Origin: Oscillospiraceae bacterium
Lineage (GTDB): Bacteria; Bacillota; Clostridia; Oscillospirales; JAVBNY01
NCBI GenBank assembly: GCA_031551205.1
Contig: JAVBNY010000001.1
Coordinates: 78,319 to 142,318 of the forward strand
DNA length: 64,000 nucleotides
Direction of reading: 5' to 3'
Both the position numbers and the translations under genes were made by a program. Shown piece by piece: positions 6,061 through 37,479 of the stretch. The first letter of the stretch is position 1, and the number at the start of each line of letters is the position of its first letter. The notes beneath the pieces were generated by a model, which was not told the origin of the DNA, did no database searches, and saw only the letters and a list, made by a program, of their open reading frames with translations.

Positions 6061-7464
6061 TCAGGCGTGGGGAATATCCGTAAAAGACGATATCTCCGCG
6101 CTCTGGGTGCAGAGATCCGAGACCTTTAGCTCATGAATATCACTGTGCCCGGAAACGCGGCAGAAAGTTTCGAGCTCGGCCTTTGTTACATTCAAAAAAT
6201 TAAAGAGTCTTTTTGCCGCGTGCTCTACAGACAGCCTCGCGCGCAGCTCGGGATCCTGCGTGGCGGCCCCGACGGGGCAGCGCCCGGTGTGACACTGGCG
6301 GAACTGCTGACAGGCGGCGGCCATAAGCGCGGCAGAGGCGATCGCCACCGCATCCGCCCCCAGGGCGATTGCCTTCACAAAATCAGACGGGACGCGCAGC
6401 CCTCCGGTTATCACGAGCTCGACCGGCGCGCCGGCGAGGAACCGCTTTGCCCTGTGAAGCGCGTATATTGTCGGGACGGCGGAGGCGTCTTTCAGCGTTT
6501 TCGGCGAGGCGCCTGTCGCGCCGCCGCGCCCGTCGATCGTAACAAAGTCAGGCTCCGCGAAGAGGGCAAAGTCAAGATCCCGCTCGATGTGACCGGCGGC
6601 GAGCTTTATGCCGATGGGGCGGCCGCAGGAGGCGTCGCGCAGCTCGGAAACGAGCGTCCTGAGGTCATGCCTTGAGTTTATGCCGGGGAAGCGGGACGGA
6701 CTGATGATATCCTGTCCGAGCGGCCTGCCGCGGATAAGCGCTATCTCTTGCGTCACCTTTTCGGCGGGGAGGTGGCCGCCCATGCCGGGCTTTGTGCCCT
6801 GACCGATCTTGATCTCAACAGCGTCGGAGCTTTTGAGATTCTCTTCTGTAACGCTGTAAAGGTTTGGGACATATTCAAAGATATATCTGTAGGCGGAGTC
6901 GCGTTCCTCCGGGAGGATGCCGCCCTCACCGCTGCACATCGCGGTTTTCGCCATTGCCGAACCCTTTGAAAGTGCGATCTTCATTTCGCGGGACAAAGCT
7001 CCGAAGGACATATGTGAAACGTAAACCGGGGATTCAATTTCAAGCGGCTTCTTCGCGCGTTTCCCTATAACAGTCTTAACGCTGACGGGCGCGTGCTCGT
7101 CAAGCGGGAACGGGTCGAGCTGCGCACCGAGAAAAAGGATCTCGTCCCATGAAACTGTTCTCAGCCTTGTGCCCATTGGCTCAATAATGGGAAACCCGCC
7201 GACGGCCATCGCGTGGATTGTCTCCATGTGCCGATCAAAGGCATCCGATGTCTTGAAAAATTCGCGCGGATATGCGAGCGGATTTTCATCCGCGTCGGGC
7301 AAAAGAGAAGCGCCATTATCCCCAATGTCCTGTTTTCTGCTGAAAAGCGACTTTGGCGCCCCGCAGGACGGGCAGACCCAACTGTCGGGCAGACTGCCCC
7401 ACAAAGCGCCGACGGCCGCCTCGTCGTATTCAAATCCACACATGCCGCAAACATACACAGCCAT
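6061..7464 (-). CDS. Rubredoxin fused to FMN-binding glutamate synthase domain (GltB-like)
   Basis: N-terminal CGMCGFEYD...WVCPSCGAPK rubredoxin; MSFGALS, GEGG, EIKIGQGTKPGMGGHLP, CQQFRQCHTGRCPVG cluster motif. Confidence 0.9.
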   Translation of the reverse strand: MAVYVCGMCGFEYDEAAVGALWGSLPDSWVCPSCGAPKSLFSRKQDIGDNGASLLPDADENPLAYPREFFKTSDAFDRHMETIHAMAVGGFPIIEPMGTRLRTVSWDEILFLGAQLDPFPLDEHAPVSVKTVIGKRAKKPLEIESPVYVSHMSFGALSREMKIALSKGSAMAKTAMCSGEGGILPEERDSAYRYIFEYVPNLYSVTEENLKSSDAVEIKIGQGTKPGMGGHLPAEKVTQEIALIRGRPLGQDIISPSRFPGINSRHDLRTLVSELRDASCGRPIGIKLAAGHIERDLDFALFAEPDFVTIDGRGGATGASPKTLKDASAVPTIYALHRAKRFLAGAPVELVITGGLRVPSDFVKAIALGADAVAIASAALMAAACQQFRQCHTGRCPVGAATQDPELRARLSVEHAAKRLFNFLNVTKAELETFCRVSGHSDIHELKVSDLCTQSAEISSFTDIPHA

Positions 7465-16616: not shown

Positions 16617-18617
16617 ATGAGATATATTAATTCAATTCGCTTTAAACTGATGCTGATGGTAGTAATACCTTTGCTTGTTGTGGCAATATCCTTTATTGCC
16701 ATCGCAAATTTCACCTCAAATACGCTGGTTACCGATAGCATCAGAGCGGTGGTGGATTCCGCGAAGGACACCACCCTTCTTGAGATAGAGGCAACAAAAG
16801 CCTCGCTTGGCGGCACGGCCGCCCTGATAGGGAACACGTCCGTCGGACTTGAGGAAGCAATTGTAAAAAACGACCACGGCAGAGTCTTTGCCCTTACAAA
16901 AGGTGTTCTCGAGGCATCCACGGCAGACGGCGTTGAATTTATTGACATGCAAGGAAATGTTATTGTGCGTCTGGATGACCCAACTCATTTTGGGGACAAT
17001 GTTTCGACGTCTCCCGCGGTGGCCTCTGCCCTAGGGGGGGAAATCTCATCCTTTGTCACCCCGACCCTTAACTATGGCTTCTGCATTGCCGCCTCAAGGC
17101 CTCTCTACGATGATGGAGGGGCGCAGATTGGAGCGCTGTGCTTATTTAAAGAAATCGCCACTCCGGCGTATGTCAATTTGCTTAAAGAGATGACAGGCTG
17201 TGAGGTGTCTATCTACCAGCAGGACACGCAGGTTGTCACGACGACTACCTCGGTAAAAGCCAAGCTTGATCCCGATATATCGGACACGATTTTGAAGCAG
17301 GGGAAGGAAGTTGAGGTTACAAAGGTCGTAAATGGGATCAAGTCAATGGCCAAATTCCTGCCGATAAAGGGCCATAACGGAGAAAATATCGGCGTTTTGC
17401 TGGTTGGCAGGCCATATTCCGACACAACGTGGATCACAATTCTCTGGGTATGCGTGTTTTTTGGCTTTTTACTGGTCATTACCCCCATTGTTACTAAGGT
17501 TATTTCTTCTACTGTCATGCCGATCCGGAGGCTTGTCATTGAAGCCGACCAGCTTGCCGAGGGCGATGTAACTATTGATATTACCATGAACAGGGGAGAC
17601 GAGCTTGGAAGTCTTCAGAAGAGTTTTGCCACCTTGGTTGAAAACATGCGAGCCCAGTCAGACGTGATCAGCAAGATTGCGCAGGGAGACCTGACGCTTA
17701 TATATGAGCCTCGATCGCAGAAAGACTCTGTGGGGCAGAGCCTTGTAAACATGCTTGACCAAAACAATTCCATACTGAAGAGCATATCCGAGTCATCCTC
17801 CAGTATTGCGGAAGCTTCCTCTCAGGTCGCGGCCGGCAGCCAGGCGCTTGCTCAGGGGGCAACGGAGCAGGCGGCCTCAATTGAGCAGATATCTTCCAGC
17901 ATGGTGGCGATCGAAAAACAGACGAGGGACAATGCGGAGCTGGCAAAAAAATCTTCTGTGCTCGCTGAGGACTCAGGGAGGCTGATGCAGGAGAGCACGG
18001 AGAGCATGGCCAGTCTTGTCGATGCCATGAAGGATATATCGGAGGCGTCCGACAATATTTCAAAGGTCATAAAGGTCATAGACAGCATTGCGTTCCAGAC
18101 AAACATTCTCGCACTCAACGCCGCCGTTGAGGCGGCGAGAGCTGGTCAGCACGGCAAGGGATTTGCCGTTGTTGCCGAAGAGGTGAGGAATCTCGCCGCA
18201 AAGAGCGCCGAATCCGCCCGCGAGACAACGGCGATTATCGAGGGCAGCATACAAAAGGTGGCATTCGGATCCCAGATTGTGGACAAGACCAACAAATCGC
18301 TGAGTGAGGTCGCGGTTTATTCAAAGCAGGTCATTGATAATGTCGGCGTAATCGCGAAGGCCTCAGAGCAGCAGACCCAGTCAATAGGGCAGATACACTC
18401 GGCACTCAAGCAGGTTTCGGACGTTGTGCAGGCGACGTCGGCAACAGCGGAAGAATCCGCCTCCTCAAGCCAGGAGATGTCGAGCCATGCTTTCCTCCTC
18501 AAGGAGCGTATAGAGATGTTCCATCTTCGCGATTCGGGAACATCGTGGCAAAAATCCGTAAAGGACGAAACGTTTCACAAAGAGCTGCCCTCACACGAGG
18601 ATCGTTACTACGCATGA
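16617..18617 (+). CDS. Methyl-accepting chemotaxis protein (Cache-type sensor, HAMP, MA domain)
   Basis: Two TMs; [37 protein letters not shown] signature; start at ATG after GGGAGG. Confidence 0.95.
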
Positions 18618-18776
18618 ACAGGTAATTATTGAGTAAGCGTCGGGAGATATCACTCCCGGCGCTTTCGCGTCCGGTTTTTTCTTCACGCAATCTCTGTGTG
18701 GTATTGCCTTTACTTTTTGGGAAGACTGACATATACTTGTTGAGCGGAAAAGTGAAAAAAATCTTGGGGGGATTTT

Positions 18777-28774: not shown

Positions 28775-30985
28775 TTATGCGCCGTAGACGGTTTTAAATG
28801 TAAAGGTGTAGCTCGGGAACAGGGCCGGGATCTTGAGGCCTTCAACAACAACCGTGTCGCCGTTCGCTGTGTTGGCAATCAACGTGGTTGTCGTGATCCT
28901 TCTGGCGGTGGTCGCGTAAACAGCAGCATCGTTGCCGTTGATCGTGATCTTGAACTTCGGTGAGGTTGTCGCGATGTCAACATTAAAGTTGAGGGCGAGG
29001 CGAGTCCCGTTGGCGCCGAGCGTCATGTTCCAGATGTTCGTGTTATAGGGAACGACGGTGATGGTAGCTGTCTTCTCAACGCCGCCGCTTGTGGCAGTGA
29101 TGGTGAGAGAGGCAGTTTCGGGAACCTTGGTGATCCTGAGGATGGCGTCGCCTTCGCCGTTTATTGTGCCAGTGGCGAGAACGTTGCCTTCAGCCGAGGT
29201 AATCTTAATTGCGGAGCTGCCGAGATCCTTGCCGAAAACCGCTACGGGGATGTTGGCAGGCAGGGTTGCCACGACATTGGTAAGCGAGGTAGAAACCAGG
29301 GTGAGCCCGTCAACGCTGGCAAGCGCGGCTGCGGTCTGTGTCAGTGTCTCGGAAGCGGCCGTGATGGTGTTGAGCTCAGTCATGGAATAAACCTTGATAT
29401 TGGCAGCGGAAGTAGCGGCGGTCAAAGCCGCAGCATACGGAGCCCAGCTCTCAGAGGTGTATCTGTGGCCTTCATCGGCGGCGGGCAGAGCGGCAATCTT
29501 TGTCTTGAGGTCAAAGCGGTATTTGGAGCCGAGCATTGAGAAAAAGGACATTTTCTCGGGGTTGCCGGTGGTGCCGCCCCAGAGATGCGCGCCCTTGTAA
29601 GAGTTAAAGGTGCCGGAGTCGCTTGTGCCGTCGAAGTCGATGGCAACGACTTTGTCCTTGTACTTCAGGAGAATGTCGAAGATGCCGGCGACATAGTCGG
29701 CCTGCTCCCTCTGGATGTCCTCTCTCATGGCGATGGTGTTCGAGGCCGCGGAGTTTACGAACGGCCAGTCATATCTTCTGATCGCAGGCGCGTTGCCGGT
29801 GTCGAAGTTATTGCCGAGGGAGGTGATGCCCATGGCCCTCTGGTGATCGTTCACCGCCAGGATCGGCCAGGAGGGAACGCTGGGGTCATAGTTCGGGTTG
29901 GGAACGAGGTCGGAACGGAAGTCGGCTTCGGAGAAGGAAATCTCGTTGGAGACCGTCAGGCAGTTCTTGATATACTCTTCAAACTGCGGAAGGGTCGGAG
30001 CGGCTGTCGCGAGCCTGCCCTGAAGCCCGAAACCGTCTATGTTGCCGGCCTCATATATGGGCTTCAGCATCTTGAAGGTCTGGGAGGCTTTCGGCTCATA
30101 GGGTTTGTTGGAATCCATAAAGTCATTGTAGTAAAGCTTCCAGTCCACGTTGAACTGGGCTCTGTACTTCGCGGCATACTCAAACGCTTTGCGGATGTAT
30201 ACGCTTTCCTCATAGAGCCTCTGGTCGGGATTGTTGTCGAGGTCGCGCCTTCTGAAGATGCGGCCCCACTGGCCGGTCTGATAGCCGTCGGCGTTGCGGA
30301 CGTGGCCCGTAAAGTCGTCAAGGCCTTCGTTGACAACATCCCAGGAGATTATGAGATCGTCATACGGTGCATAACGCTCGGTCATCTTCATTATGAAGTC
30401 GTCAAGCCTCGCGAGCATGACCTCGGGGGTCGTCCAGTCGGGATTGGCGGCATTGTAGTTAAAGCCGTTGCAGAAGAAGTAATTCGGCTGCTGTCCGCCG
30501 TGCCATACGAAAACGTGACCGCGGACGTAGATTTTATCGTCGTCGGCGCGGGTTTCATTGGCGACTCTCATGGCGTTGAGCATACCGATGGATCTGGCAG
30601 AATTCGAAAGATAGGTGTAGTCCTCGAGGGTGACGGTTTTGTTCGCCTTGTCAATGGCGGCGGCCTTCTCGGCCTCGCTCATCTCGGTGTTCGCGTTGAT
30701 GGCGGCGACGGCGGCGTCATAGGTGGCCTTCGAGGGGTTCCTCGCAGCAGAAGAGCCATTGCCTATCTGGCTGTCAAGTTTAAGTGCATTGGCAGGGCTG
30801 TTGACCTGGTAGTGGAGAAGCTGCTGAGCACTGCTCCAGCCGCCGAAAGTGCCTATCATAAAGGCGTCTTTATATGTTTTATAAAGAGAAGGAAGGGTGA
30901 GGTCAACCGCAGAAGACGAGGGCAGCACGCTGATAACCAGACATGCCACGATCGCAAGGCAAAGGATTCTTGATAATTTTCTCAT
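28775..30985 (-). CDS. Secreted GH10 (endo-xylanase family) glycoside hydrolase with FIVAR-like and unknown C-terminal domains
   Basis: Signal peptide; RGHVFVWH, WDVVNE, LYYNDF, IDGFGLQ, nucleophile region ISFSEAD; YTSESWAPYAAAL segment. Confidence 0.85.
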   Translation of the reverse strand: MRKLSRILCLAIVACLVISVLPSSSAVDLTLPSLYKTYKDAFMIGTFGGWSSAQQLLHYQVNSPANALKLDSQIGNGSSAARNPSKATYDAAVAAINANTEMSEAEKAAAIDKANKTVTLEDYTYLSNSARSIGMLNAMRVANETRADDDKIYVRGHVFVWHGGQQPNYFFCNGFNYNAANPDWTTPEVMLARLDDFIMKMTERYAPYDDLIISWDVVNEGLDDFTGHVRNADGYQTGQWGRIFRRRDLDNNPDQRLYEESVYIRKAFEYAAKYRAQFNVDWKLYYNDFMDSNKPYEPKASQTFKMLKPIYEAGNIDGFGLQGRLATAAPTLPQFEEYIKNCLTVSNEISFSEADFRSDLVPNPNYDPSVPSWPILAVNDHQRAMGITSLGNNFDTGNAPAIRRYDWPFVNSAASNTIAMREDIQREQADYVAGIFDILLKYKDKVVAIDFDGTSDSGTFNSYKGAHLWGGTTGNPEKMSFFSMLGSKYRFDLKTKIAALPAADEGHRYTSESWAPYAAALTAATSAANIKVYSMTELNTITAASETLTQTAAALASVDGLTLVSTSLTNVVATLPANIPVAVFGKDLGSSAIKITSAEGNVLATGTINGEGDAILRITKVPETASLTITATSGGVEKTATITVVPYNTNIWNMTLGANGTRLALNFNVDIATTSPKFKITINGNDAAVYATTARRITTTTLIANTANGDTVVVEGLKIPALFPSYTFTFKTVYGA

Positions 30986-31522
30986 TACTGCTTGCTCCTT
31001 TAAAATTATTTACTTGATGTGCTTGGCTTTCTCTTTGCATTGATAAGCCGACTTTAGATAGAGAAAAGCAAGCGATAGACTGTGAAACGAAGACGCCTCA
31101 ATAATTGGGGCGCCTCTTGGTTCAAAGGCTAAAGCTAAATGGTGAGCCGCAATCTGCGCCGCGCAAAGCGGCGAAAAAGCTGCCAAGATAGGCGGCAGAT
31201 CTGAAAGCGGCCGACGGTGCCGGGAAAAGCGAGGTAAAAGAGCTGAGCATAAAGTGCAAACAAGAAAAGACGCCGCCATGTCATACCCACGCAGGCCACG
31301 AACCGAAGTGCGGTCGGCCGAGGCTGTCGCCGGGTAGAGAGTGCCCGGGCACAGAGACAATGAAACTACAACTTTTACGGGGCATTTGGGGCAGGAGAAG
31401 CTGTGAAGTTCCGAAATCTCAGCACCCGGAGAATGAGTGGCCGCAAGAAACAGCCAAAGATTTATTTCTTAACGCCAACAATCTCCTTTCTCAAACATGT
31501 GACAGACTTGTACAACAATTCA

Positions 31523-31551
31523 ATTATATATTAAATTTACCATATAGTCAA
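31523..31551 (-). promoter_or_regulatory. Near-consensus sigmaA promoter, ~530 nt upstream of GH10 start
   Basis: TTGACT-N17-TATAAT on minus strand. Confidence 0.7.
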
Positions 31552-31619
31552 GGAAATATTTCTTATATTTGTATACTATTTAGGTATAATTGAAAATACG
31601 AGTAATAAGTTTCGAAAGG

Positions 31620-31647
31620 ACACAATCCTGGCAAATATGCATAGAAT
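31620..31647 (+). promoter_or_regulatory. sigmaK/sigmaE-like promoter
   Basis: ACACA-N15-CATAGAAT. Confidence 0.45.
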
Positions 31648-31677
31648 AATACAGAAAGTAATGAAAGGGGCAAATTT

Positions 31678-32289
31678 ATGGAATTAACACATAACGGCGG
31701 ACAGGTCCCGGACAAGGACGCCGAAAGAAGAATATGGGAGCGCGTAATGGCCCAAAAGCAGGCGGGGTCGGACGCGTACAAAAACCTGATAAACTCCGGA
31801 GGGGACAGCCGTTACGCTGTTCAAAACGGCGGCGTGGTTACGGAAATGCCGCAGGCGCAGGCGGCCGTCGCCTTGCAGGAAACCGGAGAGGACGCGTTTC
31901 TGAAAAGCTGCGTTGCGCAAGAGCTCGAGGACGCGAAGCTGTATGCCGCGCTGGCCAGATGCGCGCCGGGAAGACGTGCGTCCGCCGTGTTCATGCGCCT
32001 TTCAAACTCCGAACTTGAGCATGCAAAGCGTTTTTCCACGCTGTTCTTTTTGAGAACCGGTGAGTTTTATTTCCCGTACGCCGTAATGCAGACGCCGAGA
32101 ATAAGCATGCTGAATGAGACGCTCCGTGAATGTTACCGGCGCGAGAGTGAGGATGTTTTAAGATACCTCAGGGCGGCTGAAAGCACGGCGGACCCCGTAT
32201 TGGCCGAAGCCTTCCGGGAGGCGGCGTCGGAGGAGCTTGGGCACGCCAAGTGCATCAGGGAACTGATCGAAAACATCCTGATACCCTGA
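31678..32289 (+). CDS. Ferritin-like/rubrerythrin-family protein (possible spore protein)
   Basis: Two E...ExxH motifs (ELEHAK, ELGHAK); IWERV N-terminal motif. Confidence 0.75.
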   Translation: MELTHNGGQVPDKDAERRIWERVMAQKQAGSDAYKNLINSGGDSRYAVQNGGVVTEMPQAQAAVALQETGEDAFLKSCVAQELEDAKLYAALARCAPGRRASAVFMRLSNSELEHAKRFSTLFFLRTGEFYFPYAVMQTPRISMLNETLRECYRRESEDVLRYLRAAESTADPVLAEAFREAASEELGHAKCIRELIENILIP

Positions 32290-36446: not shown

Positions 36447-37016
36447 TTATTTTGCGTATGTATGCAATCCTTTAAGCAAAACTGAGATAATTCTTTTTTG
36501 AACCAGCACGGAAATGGCCGTAATAGCCACGCCTTTTACCACGTTAAAGAGGAGAAGCGCCGGCATCATCACAAGATATGTTCCGGGCGGGACGTTTGAA
36601 ACGGCTTCATACGCGGGAATAAAGATAAAAAGATTTGAGACGAAGGCGACGGCGGTCATAAGCAGCGTCCCCGAGGCGCCGAGCGTCAGCGTCCTCACAC
36701 GTTCGTCTTTGATGGCGCCAAGGTTCCTGAAAAAGCCGAAGGGAACGACCAGCGCCACGCCGACAAGGAGGTTCGCAAGCTCGCCGATGCCCACGGTTTT
36801 ACTCGAGAGCACGTGCACGAGGTTCTTGATCAGCTCGACAAGCACGCCGAAGAGCGGCCCGTATGCCATCGAGGCCAAAACTGCGGGCAGGTCGGAGATG
36901 TCCATTTTGAGAAACGACGGGAAAAACAGAAGCGGGGTTTCGAAAAACATTAGCACGATTGCCAGTGCGGCGAGCAGCGCCGTGCACACCATGAGATAGA
37001 TTCGTTTTCTTAGCAT
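36447..37016 (-). CDS. ribU: ECF transporter S component, riboflavin
   Basis: FLKMDISDLP, VELIKN, GIGELAN, FNVVKG; FMN riboswitch upstream. Confidence 0.9.
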   Translation of the reverse strand: MLRKRIYLMVCTALLAALAIVLMFFETPLLFFPSFLKMDISDLPAVLASMAYGPLFGVLVELIKNLVHVLSSKTVGIGELANLLVGVALVVPFGFFRNLGAIKDERVRTLTLGASGTLLMTAVAFVSNLFIFIPAYEAVSNVPPGTYLVMMPALLLFNVVKGVAITAISVLVQKRIISVLLKGLHTYAK

Positions 37017-37059
37017 AATTTTTCCTCTTTTCGTCAGGCAAATGCCCAAGATAAACGCG

Positions 37060-37081: not shown

Positions 37082-37108
37082 GGCAGCACTTCCGCCTAAG
37101 CGAAAAAC

Positions 37109-37232
37109 GCCTTCTCGCATCCGGACTATACCGTCGGCTCCGGATTCAAACCGGATCATGCTTTCGCTCGCGGGCTTATCGGCTTTCGCCGCTTCACCGC
37201 CGGTGGGGAATCTCACCCCGCCCCGAAGACAG
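37109..37232 (-). ncRNA. FMN riboswitch (RFN element)
   Basis: TCTTCGGGGCGGGGTGAGATTCCCCACCGGCGGT...AGCCCGCGAGC...GATCCGGT...CCGGAGCCGACGGTATAGTCCGGATGCGAGAAG; promoter TTGCAC-N17-TAGAAT upstream. Confidence 0.97.
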
Positions 37233-37479
37233 ATATTTACTTATGGCGCTATTCTAGCATATTTCCGCATTGCGTGCAACATGTTTTTATTTTGCCGCCG
37301 ACAAGGCCTCTCCGAAGGAAAAAGATTAATGTTTATACTTTTTTTGCTTGTTATTGCGCGTACATGTGCTATAATATTACGACGCAGATAAATCAATTGG
37401 TCGTCCGGGCGCGCTGCGCTTTAAAAAATAGGCGGCATCCGGCTCACAAGGCGCCGCTTCACTCCAAGAGGGGGAGAAT

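Follow-up and report, generated by a model that had tools for sequence, protein, structure and literature searches.

The gene for a secreted glycoside hydrolase family 10 (GH10) xylanase in the genome of an Oscillospiraceae bacterium is preceded by about 530 nt of DNA, beyond which stands the only clear promoter that faces it. The locus raises the question of whether this interval is the leader of the GH10 mRNA, a separate structured RNA or the remains of another gene. The window, that is the whole stretch of DNA analysed, comprises 64,000 nt, and all positions without a contig label refer to it; G000 denotes the source genome. The first-pass annotation described the interval as highly structured and non-coding, and interpreted it as either a cis-regulatory leader or an independent RNA antisense to it. 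The interval is most probably the leader of the GH10 mRNA.

Promoter, leader and coding potential

The assignment of the gene to family GH10 is confirmed by Pfam PF00331 (E 9e-31). Among six promoter-like sites between 30500 and 32500, the one singled out earlier, at 31551-31523 on the minus strand, is the best. With the usual spacing of 6-7 nt from the promoter, transcription is predicted to start near 31516; the ATG lies at 30985, so the promoter-to-ATG gap of some 530 nt reported earlier corresponds to a leader of about 531 nt (Table 1). The promoter faces GH10 with no gene between, giving a leader of several hundred nucleotides from a start site that is predicted. The SD-like word GAAAGGAG near its 5' end is followed, at poor spacing, by a possible 19-codon TTG ORF (31478-31419). 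A sister leader, before a GH9 gene on contig C32, also contains an SD-like word, at +24. Sites like the plus-strand TTCTCA-16-TAAAAT arise 1.5 times per shuffle of the region.

Table 1. Features of the GH10 locus and of related loci in the source genome.
Feature	Position	Strand	Basis or remark
GH10 xylanase gene	28775..30985	-	736 aa, secreted; C-terminal module shared genome-wide
Rubrerythrin/ferritin-like gene, divergent from GH10	31678..32289	+	
Sigma-A-type promoter TTGACT-17-TATAAT	31523..31551	-	11/12 consensus match
Predicted 531-nt 5' leader of GH10 mRNA	30986..31516	-	promoter position; non-coding tests
GH10 ribosome-binding site AAAGGAG	30995..31001	-	sequence
SD-like word GAAAGGAG, ~27 nt into leader	31483..31490	-	sequence; putative STAB-SD-like function
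Weak promoter-like site TTCTCA-16-TAAAAT, 9/12	30979..31006	+	pattern score
Palindrome, 13/14 match to TGTGCCCGGGCACA, about +164 to +177	31340..31353		likely LacI-family xylose/xylan operator
Predicted 5' hairpin, -21.5 kcal/mol, pairs part of SD-like word	31428..31486	-	z -2.9 (31425-31495)
Predicted 26-bp interrupted rod, -31 kcal/mol	31345..31429	-	minus-strand specific
Multibranch named by the first-pass annotation	31145..31212	both	z -2.9 plus, -2.6 minus
Weak terminator-like hairpin, -6.5 kcal/mol, plus CUUUUUCG	31172..31198	-	fold prediction
Interrupted stem, inner hairpin 31088-31119 (-13.5 kcal/mol on minus)	31071..31136		
Last predicted leader stem-loop, -13 kcal/mol, then AU-rich single-stranded tract	31021..31073	-	
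Plus-strand fold: long G.U-rich closing rod, three arms	31018..31240	+	basis of antisense reading
Stand-alone 496-nt contig, metatranscriptome X2	31001..31496		depth 22.3; no loose ends listed
Second SD-like word	G000 C6:24475, C9:17027, C11:7248, C19:6737, C19:25565, C31:23519, C32:183034; also L106, L002		
Dispersed repeat	G000 C11:~6880, C31:~29500, C32:~18500, C32:~177000, C32:~182900, C18:~97130		
314-nt duplication	G000 C27:~6380-6700 and C7:~18410-18720		

The interval was said to hold no credible ORF, and hexamer coding scores are indeed negative in all six frames (-0.5 to -1.2, versus +0.3 to +0.7 in three neighbouring genes). Its open frames include a 116-aa TTG ORF and frames of 152 codons (minus) and 133 codons (plus); none of five open frames matched Pfam or PHROGs at E<=0.1. 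The purine skew noted on the plus strand was likewise recovered (57% purine, AT skew up to 0.56).

Several features were observed at other genes for secreted proteins of this genome. A C-terminal module of about 170 aa is found on secreted proteins from 52 ORFs, including the GH10 gene (28775-29320), and is present in 3 of 400 genomes of the order (G079, G320 and G198). A second SD-like word, often GGAGGTG, stands 65-100 nt before the start codon of 7 of 29 genes with this module versus 16 of the 348 remaining genes that have long gaps upstream (Fisher p 0.0008, the 65-100-nt range being chosen after the pattern was seen); such words are possible STAB-SD-type stabilisers of secreted-enzyme mRNAs. 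A dispersed REP/MITE-like repeat of ~40-70 nt lies upstream of several secreted-protein genes and is absent from the GH10 leader. Two different genes are preceded by copies, 92% identical, of a 314-nt segment with a promoter and the start of a signal peptide.

A putative operator and a xylan regulon

The one word common to this leader and that of the paralogous GH10 gene (contig C31, 53% identical) is a palindrome of 14 nt. Within the window alone it is not significant, a match being present in 22 of 100 shuffles. Over the source genome the 14-mer has 23 matches at up to two mismatches. A crude ORF mask classes 11 as intergenic and places nine two-mismatch matches inside ORFs; 25 shuffled-palindrome controls gave 0-3 intergenic matches each. 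Among the 14 matches listed, two are unassigned and 12 stand before assigned genes: two GH10 genes (including this one), two GH43, two GH3, two GH9, and genes for a CBM6/GH30-like protein, a CBM4_9 protein, an SGNH esterase and a LacI protein. The LacI gene (C3:13129) heads xylA (xylose isomerase) and chvE-gguA-gguB, all assigned by NCBIfam above cut-off. At L068:1130-7923 (C3:13129-19922) stand LacI, xylose isomerase and chvE-gguA-gguB, after which comes a GH3 gene with an operator of its own.

Of 14 loci with a homologue of the LacI protein in other genomes, 5 have a like palindrome within 300 nt upstream. Among GH10 relatives for which upstream DNA was found, the closest (L106, 65% over residues 1-224) has a 12/14 site 144 nt before its ATG and a leader of ~360 nt as judged by eye, which does not align with the GH10 leader of the window. 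In G079, G320 and G198 the 14-mer has 12, 13 and 10 matches versus 2, 4 and 6 for controls, the best of these matches being mostly at two mismatches. LacI-family operators are usually marked by CG at the centre and by a copy upstream of the gene for the regulator itself. The palindrome here is even, has a central CG and occurs before functionally linked genes, before the regulator gene and before homologues of that gene. A self-site before the regulator gene is also stated in the accessible text of PMC5171806.

Sequence comparison thus makes the palindrome probably a working operator, and its repressor would be the LacI protein encoded at C3:13129. The LacI-xylA-chvE-gguAB locus is probably the centre of a xylan regulon that comprises some 12 transcription units. 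Exact and variant literature searches for the operator word returned nothing relevant among the matches listed; these searches do not reach logos, figures, supplements and regulon databases, and the word may be catalogued already.

The layout recurs in other members of the regulon. The distance from predicted start to operator and the leader length are 163 and 531 nt for this GH10 gene, 155 and 496 nt for GH3 on C6 (leader at C6:41940-42440), 146 and 527 nt for GH9 on C32 (leader at C32:237610-238136), and 197 and 353 nt for GH10 on C31; the span from operator to ATG is ~210 nt longer here than in the paralogous GH10 leader. By sequence comparison, a putative repressor site therefore stands downstream of the start, at a distance that suits a roadblock rather than the blocking of a promoter. 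Since the sister leaders are similarly long, the length of this leader calls for no separate RNA. The paralogous leaders before other CAZyme genes, a search for which was proposed earlier, repeat the layout and have no alignable sequence in common with this leader. Nor do they have a fold in common with this leader (the C32 leader has a mean z of +0.8), which has the lowest mean sense-strand z (-0.93) among eight regulon leaders with a promoter-defined start. Sharing neither sequence nor fold, the sister leaders give no sign of selection on the hairpins.

Folding, homologues and RNA-library coverage

The description of the interval as highly structured is too strong: as a whole it is only moderately above chance, and two sub-domains fold well, on opposite strands. 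Compared with dinucleotide shuffles, the whole interval gave z -1.19 on the plus strand (11 of 100 shuffles as good) and -2.03 on the minus strand (4 of 100). The interval was also set against other divergent intergenic regions 450-900 nt long, of which 24 out of 37 were scored: 8 matched or beat it in mean z and 6 in minimum z, in a noisy comparison (15 shuffles per folding window) whose control set may include tRNAs and repeats. With bounds chosen after the fold, 31018-31240 gave z -4.3 on plus (0 of 150 shuffles as good, -84.9 kcal/mol) and -2.0 on minus (-67.2 kcal/mol), and 31340-31435, its bounds chosen likewise, gave z -3.7 on minus (0 of 300) and -0.7 on plus. The best sub-domains prefer opposite strands, so folding does not fix the strand, in agreement with the first-pass annotation.

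All helices named in that annotation are present, and they cannot all form in full together, since within the multibranch ATCTGC/GCAGAT overlaps two inner hairpins by 1-2 nt. The further stems it placed near 31294-31350 are not significant (31280-31360, z -1.3/-0.7), and one of them is the DNA palindrome. On the minus strand the base of the predicted rod is built from the RNA copy of the operator. The terminator-like hairpin has a pair probability of 0.79 in a nascent chain ending at 31180 and of 0.08-0.34 in longer chains. An anti-SD switch using 31073-31063 was rejected, its probability being at most 0.05 versus 0.81-0.96 for the local stem-loop; the same model pairs the ribosome-binding site with early coding sequence or with a leader tract, and this pairing is not trusted.

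The Rfam search proposed earlier gave no match to the interval at gathering score, only three chance matches (E 0.4-5, in a search at E<=10); the leader matched neither a riboswitch family of Rfam nor the raiA motif RNA (RF03072). Over the whole window the only Rfam match is an FMN riboswitch at 37105-37234 on the minus strand (106 bits), an ordinary one standing before an ECF-type transporter gene (36447-37049). No DNA homologue of the interval was found in 60 relatives, and of 400 genomes of the order 22 gave only matches of 20-50 nt (E 2e-4 to 1e-2), taken as chance. One gapped pattern of the interval had no match in viral contigs, none of the upstream DNA of 83 GH10-related loci aligned with the leader, and a first metagenome scan with the GH10 protein gave no match. 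The GH10 relative in G198 lies inside an operon and has no long leader. Two covariance models, R1 for the plus-strand domain and R2 for the 5' domain on the minus strand, were each built from one sequence and are of low power. R1 gave weak partial matches in 5 of 149 genomes of the order, none credible; the best (26 bits) was seen by eye to be a gene end plus hairpins. R1 also matched 0 of 149 genomes of the class and 2 of 7 picked genomes, both at E>0.02. R2 had no match in 149 genomes, and its sole match in 22 sources was the sequence it was built from. The collection searched contains no second genome from the family of G000.

G000 (80.6% complete) has no detectable RNase P RNA, which was found in 40 of 40 relatives, and no detectable 6S RNA, found in 32 of 39; rnpA, tmRNA and SRP RNA were all detected. 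The two absences are most simply ascribed to the missing fifth of the assembly. Because of them, the interval was tested with order-specific profiles of both RNAs. It was rejected as a divergent RNase P RNA of type A/B (profile from 30 relatives -2.4 bits, with only a 22-nt L13-like word at 31223-31244) and as a divergent 6S RNA, for which there was no match by Rfam or by a 30-relative profile and a similarity of the plus-strand fold to the 6S geometry by eye only. Elsewhere in G000, at C18:~97130-97240 before an aminotransferase-like gene, a stretch without a profile match is similar to words at the apex of 6S RNAs from the order; it adjoins a copy of the dispersed repeat.

X2 is a gut metatranscriptome, a single run, from the same study as the run from which the genome may come, and its library may contain DNA. 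The stand-alone contig within the leader is 4-8 times deeper than the patchy contigs over the GH10 coding region (depth 2.8-5.2); one flat depth is given per contig, so a short abundant 5' piece with thin read-through would look alike. The promoter zone (31497-31669) is uncovered, a 12-nt gap separates the leader contig from the next contig, and the neighbouring operon has a depth of 27.7. X2 contigs carry no strand, true RNA ends or depth profile, and contig ends are not RNA ends; with that limit, one end of the leader contig lies 20 nt inside the predicted start, 6 nt before the SD-like word, and the other on the first base of the ribosome-binding site, after the AU-rich tract past the last stem-loop. 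As a hint from one study, the contig suits a leader RNA more long-lived or more abundant than its mRNA. No contig of a further run, X3, was placed here, an absence that carries no weight as evidence. The X2 contig over the rubrerythrin-like gene extends into the convergent comF, so the depth there may be antisense read-through; in a protein search the rubrerythrin-like protein had only one relative (60%).

Interpretation and comparison with known systems

The favoured scheme, a leader of the GH10 mRNA with a LacI operator roadblock and a stabilised leader RNA, is held at slightly better than even. It starts from the promoter match, the motif with its distribution and the X2 contig. A sigma-A polymerase would start near 31516 on the minus strand, and a LacI protein bound at about +165 would stall it unless a xylose-derived inducer were present; the inducer would lift the roadblock and allow the full GH10 mRNA to be made. 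The 5' SD-like word, its hairpins and the last stem-loop may slow decay of the leader RNA; a stop or cut short of the coding region, perhaps in the AU-rich tract before the ribosome-binding site, would let this RNA accumulate. A cut or stop at the ribosome-binding site is put forward tentatively. That the 496-nt piece persists as an RNA and acts independently is unlikely, whether as a cut, structure-switching leader, in which the rod on the operator's RNA copy would sense a xylan signal, or as an undescribed antisense RNA family of ~230 nt in a lineage with no detectable RNase P RNA or 6S RNA. Of the two readings in the first-pass annotation, the cis-regulatory leader gains support from the sister layout and the X2 contig, and the clearest element is a DNA operator which that annotation had not seen. 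As an RNA the leader is a modest finding, since precedents exist and the searches found no homologue from which a conserved structure could be shown.

It is rather unlikely that the promoter and operator leader work while the folding is incidental, the depth in X2 reflecting ordinary 5' polarity or the truncation of transcripts at the roadblock while the gene is repressed. The whole-region z of only -1.2/-2.0, the 8 of 24 control regions that fold as well, the unrelated and less structured sister and orthologous leaders, and the failure of both covariance models to find a homologue are what such a leader would give; against it stand the lowest mean z of the eight regulon leaders, two sub-domains that beat all shuffles, and contig ends in X2 that match the leader ends. 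An attenuator or riboswitch-like leader of the kind proposed for xyl-doc, in which either hairpin 31198-31172 or hairpin 31119-31080 would end transcription in the absence of a sugar or protein signal that refolds it, would account for the terminator-like site on the minus strand and for leader depth above coding depth, and according to the accessible text of PMC5815224 read-through is prevented by the xyl-doc UTR in E. coli as well. Here, however, the hairpin 31198-31172 is a weak one (-6.5 kcal/mol, 5 U), the only antiterminator that can be drawn has probability 0.00 and costs 20 kcal/mol to force, and the X2 contig continues 170 nt past the hairpin to 31001; with no Rfam riboswitch match, and sugar control already accounted for by the operator, an attenuator is quite unlikely.

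Quite unlikely, too, is an independent structured RNA of about 230-480 nt on the plus strand, starting near 31013 and antisense to the leader. The much better plus-strand folding of 31018-31240 (z -4.3 versus -2.0), its G.U-rich helices with pair probabilities mostly of 0.75-0.99, its A-rich loops, a weak promoter ending 12 nt before the fold and the lack of detectable RNase P and 6S RNAs in G000 all favour it. Yet that promoter is at chance level and has its -10 box covered by the X2 contig, no plus-strand terminator stands at the far end, the RNase P and 6S profiles (30 relatives each) do not match, R1 has no credible homologue in 149 genomes of the order, 149 of the class and 7 picked genomes, and the sister leaders already account for the length. 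Least probable by far is that a decayed protein gene or mobile-element remnant lengthened the leader; the open frames of 152 and 133 codons and the ~210 nt in excess of the paralogous GH10 leader suit this reading, which is opposed by the negative coding scores and the lack of a Pfam or PHROG match, and by the absence of a second copy in the genome, of convincing terminal repeats and of any phage match, plasmids giving two matches of ~30 nt.

The leader of the GH10 mRNA may be set beside known systems, as the accessible text of the cited reports describes them. In the STAB-SD of Bacillus thuringiensis cry3A, an SD-like word that starts no gene shields the RNA from RNase J1; the leader is 558 nt long, and the word lies just inside the -129 end and protects coding mRNA (PMC4113751). 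The present leader resembles that of cry3A as a long sigma-A leader with an SD-like word; unlike that of cry3A, the word stands close to the leader's 5' end, is predicted to be partly paired and is a candidate STAB-SD. The X2 contig ends 6 nt upstream of this word, as a contig end rather than an RNA end, but a TTG follows.

The likeness to the cip-cel and xyl-doc leaders is one of layout, by description rather than by sequence alignment. The cip-cel operon of Ruminiclostridium cellulolyticum starts 643 nt upstream, with a processing site in its leader (PMC4423207), and has a CRE 414 nt downstream of the start, leader CREs being read as roadblocks (PMC3551867). A leader of several hundred nucleotides, a secreted plant-wall enzyme and a repressor site well downstream of the start are common to both; cip-cel itself has a processing site and structure within its leader (PMC3551867, PMC4423207), and in place of its CRE the present leader has a GC-rich palindrome tied to a LacI-xylA operon, at about +165 and before a single gene. 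The xyl-doc 5'-UTR of R. papyrosolvens and R. cellulolyticum exceeds 400 nt and occurs as free RNA far above its genes (PMC5815224). It too is a structured leader before hemicellulase genes, GH10 coming first in three species; it differs in being >85% conserved in four species, under two-component control and furnished with strong terminator-like stems (PMC5815224), whereas the searches gave no homologue of the present leader, which has a weak terminator-like hairpin and a putative operator of LacI type.

LacI-family regulons for plant sugars are described for XynR of Anaerocellum bescii (PMC12285236), Cphy2742 (PMC5171806), GlyR2 (PMC8457756) and Moth_2024 (PMC2873477), the last a xylose-linked regulator whose motif could not be fixed (PMC2873477). 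With this group the present system shares a LacI gene with an operator before it, CAZyme targets at scattered places, operators that lie at start sites or downstream of them and a central CG. Its operator differs from the words printed in these reports (gaaancgctt-type, cre-like or GTAAnnTTAC), among them those for XynR, GlyR2 and Cphy2742; logos or supplements of these papers may hold a like motif. Long regulated leaders are already described for clostridial cellulase and xylanase genes; what is newly noted here is the likely operator and its regulon. They offer a concrete, testable scheme for how an uncultured clostridium of the invertebrate gut controls xylan breakdown: a single LacI-type regulator, acting from inside long leaders, would link about a dozen secreted enzymes with xylose uptake.
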